Shown here: positions 3,018 to 11,152 of the stretch, piece after piece | Position numbering within the stretch: position 1 is the stretch's first letter | Layout: each line of letters starts with the position of its first letter | Source of the DNA: Promethearchaeota archaeon | GTDB lineage: Archaea > Asgardarchaeota > Lokiarchaeia > Sigyniarchaeales > SOKP01 | Assembly (NCBI GenBank): GCA_048941265.1 | Contig: JBHLNT010000036.1 | Coordinates: 1-11,152 of the forward strand | DNA: 11,152 nt | Direction of reading: 5' to 3' | Notes under the pieces: model-generated | Seen by the model: only the letters and a program-made list of their open reading frames with translations | The model's database searches: none | Told to the model about the DNA's origin: nothing | Translations under genes and position numbers: made by a program

Positions 3018-3491
3018 ATGGCAAAAAAAAAAAGTAAAGAAATAAGTTTAGACGATTTGGAATCAGAATTAGAAGATATCGAAGAAGAAAATAAAATTGA
3101 AGAGGAAATTGAAGAAGAGATTGAAGAAATTGAAGAGTTCAGCTTAGATGAGATCTCTGAAGAGGAAGAAATTAGTGAAATTTTTGAAGAGGAAGTTGAA
3201 GAAATTGAAGAAGCAGAAGCAATTGAAGCTCCTAAAGAGGAAATTATCGATGAAAGAATATATATTGTACCTTTAACAAAAGCAAGACGAGGACCTCGAA
3301 ATAAATGGGCAAAAAAGTCAATTAGATTTCTCAGAGAATATATGGAGCGTCATTTTAAACCAGAATCTTTAATTATTTCACAGGAAGTAAATGAAAAAAT
3401 CTGGGAAAGGGGAATCCAAAAGCCTCCAAGAAAATTAAAAGTAAGGGCTACTAAGAATATTGATGGCTTAGTAGTTGTCTATTTAGCTTAA
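3018..3491 (+). CDS. rpl31e: 50S ribosomal protein L31e (eL31) with ~75-aa acidic N-terminal extension
   Basis: C-terminal core ERIYIVPL...VNEKIWERGIQKPPRKLKVR; lies between rpl39e and eif6. Confidence 0.95.
   Translation: MAKKKSKEISLDDLESELEDIEEENKIEEEIEEEIEEIEEFSLDEISEEEEISEIFEEEVEEIEEAEAIEAPKEEIIDERIYIVPLTKARRGPRNKWAKKSIRFLREYMERHFKPESLIISQEVNEKIWERGIQKPPRKLKVRATKNIDGLVVVYLA
3096..3137 (+). repeat. Imperfect tandem repeat (ATTGAAGAR units) encoding IEEE-IEEE-IEE-IEE
   Basis: attgaagaggaa attgaagaagag attgaagaa attgaagag within the acidic extension of rpl31e. Confidence 0.6.
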
Positions 3492-4341: not shown

Positions 4342-4572
4342 ATGTCATCGGAGATTAAAATATTTAGGATTCAAGGAACATACTTCAAAAATCATAAGAA
4401 ATACTTATTTAGAAAAGAAGTACGTGCTTTAAAAAAGGAGGACGCATTGGAGAAAGCGATGTCTCAAATCACCAGTATCGGTCTTCTTAGACGGCAAATA
4501 AAAATTCAAGAAATTAAAGAAATTTCTGCTGATGAGTGTCAAGATTATCTAATTAGAGAATTATCCCTATAA
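4342..4572 (+). CDS. rpl18a: 50S ribosomal protein LX / L18Ae (eL20)
   Basis: KIFRIxG, FRKEVRALKKEDALEK and RRQIKIxEIKEI; canonical position between eif6 and pfdA. Confidence 0.92.
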   Translation: MSSEIKIFRIQGTYFKNHKKYLFRKEVRALKKEDALEKAMSQITSIGLLRRQIKIQEIKEISADECQDYLIRELSL

Positions 4573-5995: not shown

Positions 5996-6053
5996 ATCTT
6001 TAATTTTATTTCATAGATAAATTTTTTAAAGAACATGAATTTAAGAGATTAGC

Positions 6054-6299
6054 ATGTCAACTAAATATCCTAAATACGAGAAGTATGCAAAATATCAGCA
6101 GAAGCAAAAGGAGAGCTCTTATCAGCGCCTTATGGCTTTTCTAAAAAATGCCAAGCGTATATTAAAAATAGCTAATAAACCAGACCGCAAAGAGTATTGG
6201 TTGGTGTTTAAAATATGTGGGATTGGTATAGTAGTGTTGGGAGTTCTTTCATATATTATTCAATTGATTTTTTCTGTTGCAATTCCACTTGGAGATTAA
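6054..6299 (+). CDS. secE: Protein translocase subunit SecE/Sec61-gamma
   Basis: RILKIANKPDRKEY motif followed by a single C-terminal TM helix (GIGIVVLGVLSYIIQLI). Confidence 0.93.
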   Translation: MSTKYPKYEKYAKYQQKQKESSYQRLMAFLKNAKRILKIANKPDRKEYWLVFKICGIGIVVLGVLSYIIQLIFSVAIPLGD

Positions 6300-8419: not shown

Positions 8420-8923
8420 TATCTTTATGTAAAAAGTTTAAAAAATGTGAAAATCAATGGAAAAGCATTTCTGATTGGTATGGTAATTTCCTGTATGTAC
8501 TTTTTTTTAGCGACGTTTACCACGAATATTAGGATGTTCTCATTGCGTGCTTTTATTGCAGGTGGGGGTGTTGGTATATAAAATGCCGCTAAATCTGTTT
8601 TTAGATTGCAAGCGCTTGATGATTCTATATTGAAACATGGTACACGTAAGGAAGCTTAATACAATTCCGTTAATGGTGTGATTAGATCAACTAGTACTGG
8701 AATAAAAGTAATGATTTTACTTCTTATTACAATATCTTTTGGCTATAATCTTACCCTTGGTACAAATAACACTGATTTTGCCAAATTCGGTTTATTATTC
8801 CAGATAACCAGTGCTTTAGCTATATTATGCTTAATTACAGGAATAGCTTTCTGGAAGCTTTTTGATATTTCACCAGATAAAGCCGAATCGATTAAAGAAA
8901 GTTTGCTAAAGCTCGGTCGTTAA
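8420..8923 (+). pseudogene. Degraded C-terminal fragment of an MFS transporter (GPH/MelB-like)
   Basis: One frame reads ...GKAFLIG...AFIAGGGVGI*NAAKSVFRLQALDDSILKHGTRKEA*YNSVNGVIRS...FWKLFDISPDKAESIKESLLKLGR, with TAA at 8579-8581 and 8657-8659. DDxxLKHGxRKEAxY resembles the GPH-family loop motif. The N-terminal half is absent. Confidence 0.75.
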
Positions 8924-10568: not shown

Positions 10569-11057
10569 ATGGTGAATCACATTAAAGATAAATTTCAATT
10601 AGTTGGTTCGAAAATACAAGAATTTGAATTACCAAATTCAAGAGGAGAAGTCGTCAATATCAGAGAATTTGAGAACAAAAAGAACGTTATTGTGGTCTTA
10701 TTTAGAGGTATTAGTTGACCATATTGCCGATGGCATGCCGCGAGACTACGAAAAGATCTAAAAAAGTTTGAAGAGTTAGATGGATACCTATATCCAATCA
10801 TGGCTGATAATGAGAAAAATGCTAAAAAAATGGAAGAAAAATATGCCCGAACATATCCCGTGTTTTACGATGAAACAAAAGAAGTTCCAAAATTATTAAA
10901 TCAAGAAATTAGACTTATTAAATTGGGTCGAATGCCGGGTTTACTAGTGGTTGACAAAAAAGGTATAATACAATACGCTTACTACGGAAAAAATATGCAT
11001 GATATTCCCGAAAATGACGAAATTATTGAAGTTTTGAAAAAAATTAATAAAAATTGA
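10569..11057 (+). CDS. AhpC/TSA peroxiredoxin-like selenoprotein (Sec at codon 50, TGA 10716-10718, UPYC motif), 162 aa
   Basis: Frame MVNHIKDKFQLVGSKIQEFELPNSRGEVVNIREFENKKNVIVVLFRGIS-U-PYCRWHAARL... continues in frame into the track's 10800-11057 ORF (VVDKKGIIQYAYYG). The only interruption is a TGA at the first position of the redox CxxC. Confidence 0.85.
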
Positions 11058-11147
11058 TTTGGTAGGAATAAAAAAGAAAACATAAATGACATTTTATTCT
11101 TTAAAGTTAGCCAAACTTGACCAAATCGAATCCTTATTTTTTATTTT
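11054..11147 (+). promoter_or_regulatory. Candidate SECIS / structured 3' UTR of the selenoprotein gene
   Basis: ATGAC (11086-90), AAA (11103-05) and CGAA (11127-30) at roughly SECIS-like spacing. An alternative three-way junction fold is also possible. Confidence 0.4.
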
Positions 11148-11152
11148 ATAAA

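Follow-up and report, generated by a model that had tools for sequence, protein, structure and literature searches.

A predicted Prx-like selenoprotein gene of a Lokiarchaeial genome and the three-way-junction RNA, a candidate SECIS variant, at its stop codon

The gene and its in-frame TGA

We analysed an 11,152-nucleotide stretch of a Lokiarchaeial genome, hereafter the window (positions 1-11152 of contig C247 of the source genome, G000), which carries a ribosomal and translocation gene cluster, OsmC and DnaG, together with an ArsA-type ATPase gene located just upstream of a gene for a Prx-like protein (PrxL). A run of N starts directly past base 11152, and the PrxL 3' flank is 95 bases long. 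The features of the PrxL gene are as follows.

10569..11057, plus strand: PrxL gene, encoding a predicted 162-aa Prx-like thioredoxin-fold selenoprotein with a UxxC motif (from frame, Pfam, homologues and fold)
10716..10718, plus strand: in-frame TGA, predicted Sec50 (TGA in 112/116 distinct homologous genes)
10725..10727, plus strand: Cys53, the sole Cys of the protein and second redox-box residue (from translation and alignment)
10935..10937, plus strand: Pro123, invariant, at the position of the peroxiredoxin catalytic Arg, where thioredoxin-like proteins have Pro (from alignment)
11055..11057, plus strand: TGA stop codon, sharing bases with the first helix (P1) of the RNA described below (from sequence and fold)

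Elsewhere in the window, ribosomal protein L31e (3018-3491) has a long acidic N-terminal extension, its Pfam match covering only residues 90-145 of 157, and an AT-rich stretch at 8440-8923 contains fragmentary membrane-protein-like frames that may be remnants of a transporter gene; one of these frames, at 8678-8923 (81 aa), gave no Pfam match.

A plain ORF list reports only 10800-11057 (85 aa) for the PrxL gene. The initial annotation had proposed a hidden selenoprotein frame reaching 77 codons further 5' to ATG 10569, with a single interruption by TGA 10716-10718 in a UxxC motif, and this was confirmed by translation and Pfam searches. Indeed, when the TGA is read as U, the 162-residue protein, with the context LFRGISUPYC at codon 50, matches AhpC-TSA over residues 12-136 (E 1.6e-20) and Redoxin over residues 12-147 (E 1.2e-17), and both domains span the TGA. 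The nearest named homologues belong to Promethearchaeota (Lokiarchaeia), with up to 89% identity, and most relatives terminate with TAA or TAG at the same place, versus TGA here.

The protein is a member of a published and catalogued Asgard family. A 2016 study (PMC4989117) described Prx-like selenoproteins from Lokiarchaeota as a redox-box subclass without experimental characterisation; they were reported in 43.2% of the Sec-using Asgard genomes (PMC11227280), and they are named 'Prx-like thiol:disulfide oxidoreductase' (PF00578, UxxC/UxxU) in the literature (PMC4989117; PMC11227280; PMC13188914). PrxL shares with them the AhpC-TSA fold, Sec as the first residue of the redox box, the lack of Cys outside the box and a Lokiarchaeal host, and according to these sources a UGA stop near the SECIS is also allowed. 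Furthermore, the supplement of PMC11227280 lists close orthologues as Sec proteins, with a KDKF start, FRxIxUP[YF]CRWHAA and LGRMP, which we matched by eye on these shared motifs among the best 20 of 43 places. The view of the initial annotation that a thiol-peroxidase-like selenoprotein is less expected in archaea is thus superseded by the Lokiarchaeota proteins already published (PMC4989117, PMC11227280).

We found PrxL matches in 52/61 related genomes, and almost every strong match had one TGA; codon 50 was TGA in 30 of the 32 tblastn matches (30 loci) and GAT in the other two. Among 116 distinct full-frame genes from genomes and metagenomes, counted after the removal of duplicates, matches not reaching codon 50 and frameshifted copies, the codon was TGA in 112, GAT in two, TGC in one and TGT in one, with no TGG. 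The TGA was kept across three or more families at about 40-90% protein identity, and UxxA, UxxS and UxxU occurred as redox-box variants among the relatives. The four Cys/Asp genes formed a single clade in a quick tree (100% SH-aLRT). Tandem PrxL paralogues with differing redox boxes (UxxU, UxxC, UxxA, CxxC, DxxC) were present at loci L145, L147, L141, L017 and L032; of these, the DxxC forms probably lack activity or have a regulatory role. The dN/dS values were below 1 on both sides of the TGA, with 0.17 upstream and 0.06 downstream against locus L015, and 0.36 upstream and 0.27 downstream against locus L086, the latter from small counts; four other pairs were saturated or nearly so. As a separate observation, two GC-rich (61-62%), bacteria-like UxxC homologues (L162, L163) have a stable hairpin just 3' of the UGA, in the placement of a bacterial SECIS, and are nested among archaeal rows on a long branch of the quick tree.

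The genome also encodes Sec machinery. Both selD, itself with an in-frame TGA, and selB scored above the profile cut-offs, as did SepSecS, of which only the C-terminal half is present, at a contig start. An Rfam search of the genome for tRNA-Sec yielded nothing above cut-off, and the gene was located via its UCA anticodon arm at the end of contig C284, which cuts it about 4 kb from selB. It is 96% identical to the whole gene in a same-genus genome (G001), which has a G discriminator and an apparent T-loop intron. Besides the T-loop insert seen in G001, the tRNA-Sec genes at the C284 end (L246, about 6045-6153) and at L257 have a D-loop region that is longer by about 30 bases, possibly a second intron, and the low score in standard scans is attributed to this D-loop insert. 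Two ARAGORN 'SeC' calls look spurious. We did not find pstk in this genome, and it was detected in 5/5 relatives, each time below cut-off; since the DNA preceding pstk in G001 matches contig C348 up to base 4501 of 4503, the gene most likely falls in an assembly gap. Two weak PSTK matches proved to be adenylyl-sulfate kinases, one by a domain scan and the other, near-identical, by eye. The genome thus contains at least three Sec components, the Asgard criterion of PMC11227280, and canonical Lokiarchaeal SECIS elements lie behind its VhuD-like genes and a UxxU PrxL gene.

Several other UGA frames were noted in this and related genomes. On the minus strand of G000:C159, at about 1410-2810 (L247:612-2012), three neighbouring frames are each followed by a separate canonical SECIS. 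Two of them are paralogues in which two U residues stand side by side (ADUU, GCUU) and which match no NCBIfam family; the third, 72 aa long and containing four UGA codons, scores above the cut-off of NF041374, the GDCCVxC (seleno)protein. The UU paralogues and the GDCCVxC frame fall outside the seven Asgard families named in the text of PMC11227280, and relatives of these frames occur in other genomes (L233-L235, L239). On the plus strand of G000:C349, at about 1750-2075 (L248), a frame of 91 aa, hydrophobic near its N terminus and containing a GUGC motif, is followed by a canonical-looking SECIS. Frames of 499 and 465 aa at L215 (G060:C3) and L216 (G038:C108) share a C-x-x-U-I-L-G-P motif (TDECCIU, TDDCSIU) and have a canonical SECIS directly 3', and UGA frames at L227 (G018:C6; 89 aa with UPVC) and L236 (G017:C9; 46 aa) are followed by a canonical SECIS with a side hairpin.

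From these comparisons, UGA50 of PrxL is almost certainly decoded as Sec. Decoding as Trp or Cys, through an altered code or a suppressor tRNA, would agree with the 88 W residues found at the Sec50 site in 120 database proteins (3 others have CxxC, 1 CxxS and 16 DxxC). However, a stop codon under table 11 occupies the site in 9/9 of the W-bearing proteins matched to DNA (9 of the 88, two further matches being offset artefacts), indicating that the W stems from gene callers, and no TGG occurred in the 116 genes. In addition, TGA terminates 272/2013 long open frames in this genome, and PrxL itself, and tRNA-Sec and selB are present, all of which makes such decoding highly improbable. Less credible still is a pseudogene or sequencing error with the 85-aa C-terminal frame as the only product; that frame does appear in the plain ORF list, and a few relatives are frameshifted (the first copy of L048, and L158), but the TGA is maintained over families as divergent as those described above, the upstream half is under selection, and one domain runs across the TGA. 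The preference of the initial annotation for UGA recoding over a pseudogene or a code change therefore holds, on TGA conservation, purifying selection on both sides, the Cys homologues, which do exist in small number (TGC and TGT in 2/116 genes; the CxxC and CxxS proteins), and the Sec machinery, with pstk as its one probable gap; Trp at the site, which it had listed as contrary evidence, turned out to be a gene-caller product.

Protein fold and predicted chemistry

Peroxiredoxins use the Pro and Thr/Ser of a PxxxT/SxxC motif and an Arg ahead of the C-terminal strand as catalytic residues. The AlphaFold model of the PrxL protein (pLDDT 93.7) gave BCP/PrxQ and AhpE peroxiredoxins (PDB 3drn, 3hjp, 2cx3, 1xxu) as the best structural matches and nearest solved folds, with TM about 0.83 (0.81-0.84) and 22-23% identity. 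In these alignments, Cys53 coincides with the peroxidatic Cys of BCP-type peroxiredoxins, and also with the second Cys of CxxC proteins, whereas Arg46 and Sec50 replace the Pro and Thr/Ser, so that the motif reads RxxxUxxC, and Pro123 replaces the catalytic Arg of 2cx3. The CxxC protein 3hdc also has Pro there, and the invariant Arg121, two residues before Pro123, might stand in for the catalytic Arg. Among TlpA/ResA-type CxxC oxidoreductases (PDB 3hdc, 3c71), the CPYC-like box of PrxL and its R-L/M-P motif, which lies ahead of the last strands, align with 3hdc, but PrxL has no membrane anchor. PrxL scores far under the NCBIfam cut-offs, with 46 of 120 bits for the SelL-related redox protein NF040769 and 25 of 170 for ResA.

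Since the peroxiredoxin Pro, Thr and Arg are missing, a selenol/thiol-disulfide oxidoreductase is likelier than a peroxidase, and the designation 'thiol-peroxidase-like' in the initial annotation is doubtful. We slightly favour such an oxidoreductase, in which a Sec-x-x-Cys redox box would be mounted on a peroxiredoxin-like scaffold, with Sec50 most likely as the attacking nucleophile and Cys53 as the resolving residue; the UxxA relatives retain Sec50 and not Cys53. The enzyme would then reduce or exchange disulfides or other oxidised sulfur on partner molecules, in the manner of TlpA/ResA, rather than act on peroxides classically, and peroxide reduction by the selenol is possible.

A three-way-junction RNA at the stop codon

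The 3' flank of the gene contains a conserved RNA, which lies outside the span of the initial annotation and was not mentioned there. Its parts in the window are as follows.

11056..11127, plus strand: three-way-junction RNA, a candidate SECIS without the basal kink-turn core (from folds, covariation and model matches)
11056-11063 with 11120-11127, plus strand: closing helix P1 (from fold)
11065-11073 with 11092-11100, plus strand: long helix P2, with an A-rich loop on top (from fold)
11074..11091, plus strand: A-rich apical loop of P2, also with GA and AUGA facing each other at the tip (AAA in 103/104 elements)
11104..11118, plus strand: side hairpin P3, with the loop UAGCCAA at 11108-11114 (from fold; like the hairpin in canonical SECIS)

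The window RNA (11056-11127) folds with -15.7 kcal/mol (z -2.96), and relatives share the fold right behind the stop, with P1, P2 carrying an A-rich loop, and P3 with the loop UAGCCA; the P3 loop consensus is circular for its first five letters because elements were picked by that motif. P2 is 9-11 bp long, with AAA within the first 10 nt of its loop in all but one of the 104 elements, while the length and last base of the P2 loop are more variable than in canonical elements. GC-rich versions (L043, L208) retain the three-way fold, a U-rich tract lies 3' of the element in most loci, and both G-U pairs and model scores favour the gene strand for the RNA. RNAalifold on a plain MAFFT alignment returned no consensus structure. 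In the structure that we named by hand from single-sequence folds, 86.6% of cells were paired and 21/22 pairs had changes on both sides; 0/500 shuffles reached it, a test that relatedness inflates, and slid partners paired at 37-55%, a control over which the naming by hand favours the structure. Rfam covariance models, run on 10 loci (9 of them PrxL), identified no family, with one weak unrelated match (E 0.71).

A covariance model (R1) gave 74 strong matches in 71 of 78 further loci, and every one of these matches lay at a PrxL stop on the strand of the gene; several of the 78 loci differ little from loci used in training. The seven loci without a match comprised one where the contig ends at the gene, one Asp gene, three with diverged, three-armed structures by eye, and two GC-rich, bacteria-like loci where a hairpin lies immediately past the UGA. 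In the 61 genomes, with the best 75 candidates per genome scored, 29/29 matches at E<=1e-5 sit at the stop of the same PrxL subfamily. A model-free descriptor fitted 93/112 TGA genes (12 of its 18 misses being training rows or model matches), 0/4 Cys/Asp genes and 6/600 control 3' regions of this genome; as the Cys/Asp genes are one clade, the loss counts as a single event. At both L145 and L147, the element is present behind the UxxU as well as the UxxC paralogue but not behind the CxxC paralogue next to them.

The 18 weaker R1 matches included two clean core-less junctions at unrelated mini-frames and one at a PrxL fragment, and 15 were noise-like. At L262 (G034:C80) and L264 (G023:C24), UGA frames of about 50 aa with a CTGUGI motif precede a core-less three-way junction, and these frames are candidate unannotated mini-selenoproteins. 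Core-less junctions were also seen behind two PrxL genes from a different subfamily (L200, L201).

Relation to canonical Asgard SECIS elements

In the published lokiSECIS, AUGA precedes a stem of 9 bp, which bears an A-rich loop of 11 nt with G as its last base and is followed by GA (PMC4989117). Like this element and the Asgard type I eSECIS-like form (PMC4989117; PMC11227280), the PrxL RNA is placed directly behind the stop of a UGA gene, and it shares a stem of about 9-11 bp and an A-rich apical loop often ending in G. A closing helix and a side hairpin with a GC loop are likewise common to the PrxL RNA and to canonical elements, as found here. Indeed, a side hairpin just after the GA is present in 26/34 canonical SECIS candidates behind UGA frames, versus 11% of shuffles, and most candidates scored without it show one with a G-U loop by eye. 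The selD SECIS has a side hairpin too, and the P3 loop is identical in two canonical elements at PrxL loci (G000 C262, L204). In contrast, the stem of the PrxL RNA is neither preceded by AUGA nor followed by GA, and ordinary pairs continue down to the three-way junction; RUGA occurs near the P2 base in 8/104 elements. By eye, the consensus fold has no GAA_A bulge of the Euryarchaeal SECIS. We also considered the P3 loop GCCA as a mimic of the tRNA-Sec 3' end, and rejected it since G-C/U is all that the side hairpins of canonical elements preserve in their loops. Base pairing between the P3 loop and the codons that follow the UGA, judged by eye, is not conserved in the UxxA and UxxC-RAH groups and was rejected as well.

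For Asgard PrxL, the available text of the publications describes an AUGA/GA SECIS with a 9-bp stem and 11-nt loop, whereas our strict canonical pattern found none from -30 to +600 of 54 and 85 PrxL matches of this subfamily (some flanks shorter), using a detector that recovered 4/10 in other PrxL genes, where seven look canonical by eye. Given the 95-base flank, a canonical SECIS further 3' is possible for the window copy and is excluded for the relatives only. A loose, published-style pattern matched somewhere behind 92/109 genes, in 57 of them within 100 nt, and for this reason these PrxL genes may have been given a different structure by the 2024 pipeline; that study reports eSECIS-like calls for 85.1% of genes and allows that further patterns were missed (PMC11227280).

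On covariation and co-occurrence, the three-way-junction RNA behind PrxL is quite probably a SECIS. We consider it probable that PrxL is an intact selenoprotein gene whose recoding this RNA directs, as a core-less variant of the lokiSECIS. UGA50 would be decoded as selenocysteine by tRNA-Sec and SelB, most likely under the direction of the RNA that begins at the stop codon, and this RNA would be a Lokiarchaeal variant in which the closing helix, the stem of about one turn, the A-rich loop and the side hairpin are kept and the AUGA/GA kink-turn core is replaced by ordinary pairs. The simplest reading is that one SECIS architecture, with or without the kink-turn, covers both the canonical and the PrxL elements.

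Two other accounts of the RNA were weighed. It might be a circularly permuted SECIS, in which the kink-turn has become a K-loop at the P2 tip, with GA facing AUGA, P2 serving as the non-canonical stem and P1 as a new entry helix. At the P2 tip, GA and TGA do face each other exactly in 35/106 rows, the window included and usually with a mismatch beneath, AA stands opposite in 18 more rows, and 58 rows have ATGA. However, 31/106 rows (2 of them not elements) have no TGA at the tip and 22/106 have another dinucleotide opposite, and the P2 loops match canonical apical loops, starting with an A-run and ending with G, some letter for letter. Since the closing helix, stem and side hairpin also follow in the canonical order, a permutation is not needed, and we regard it as unlikely. 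It is similarly unlikely that PrxL is a selenoprotein recoded by another signal, with the 3' RNA acting in termination, stability or regulation specifically for this family. The U-rich tract behind the RNA and the missing published SECIS core would suit such a role, and the loss of the element together with Sec is one event, but the strict canonical pattern is absent from the searched flanks, the same fold stands behind unrelated UGA frames, the descriptor rarely fits the control 3' regions, and the loop and side hairpin are shared with canonical SECIS. The core-less SECIS variant thus remains the preferred reading.

The new part of this work is probably this RNA, the PrxL protein alone being one more member of a published family that gene callers split in two. 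We found no description of a three-way-junction or core-less Asgard SECIS in the literature outside subscription journals, no mention of a side hairpin in the available text of PMC4989117 and PMC11227280, and, in the texts consulted, no reporter test of UGA recoding by any Asgard SECIS. The covariance model of the PrxL RNA already picks up unannotated UGA mini-genes, and, if the proposal is true, models based on AUGA/GA missed a class of Asgard SECIS and small selenoproteins.

Archaea have no SBP2, and by what route a SECIS located in the 3' UTR is brought to their ribosomes is a standing question (PMC4989117, PMC11227280). The case for the descent of the eukaryotic SECIS rests mainly on the Asgard kink-turn core. 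The evidence somewhat favours the view that the working parts of the Asgard SECIS are the three-way junction, the A-rich apical loop and the short side hairpin, with the eukaryote-like kink-turn being optional. The side hairpin and apical loop would then be the likely contacts for SelB, the ribosome or a SECIS reader, and an element that keeps the loop and side arm in the absence of the core indicates which parts of the SECIS to mutate and which to use as bait.
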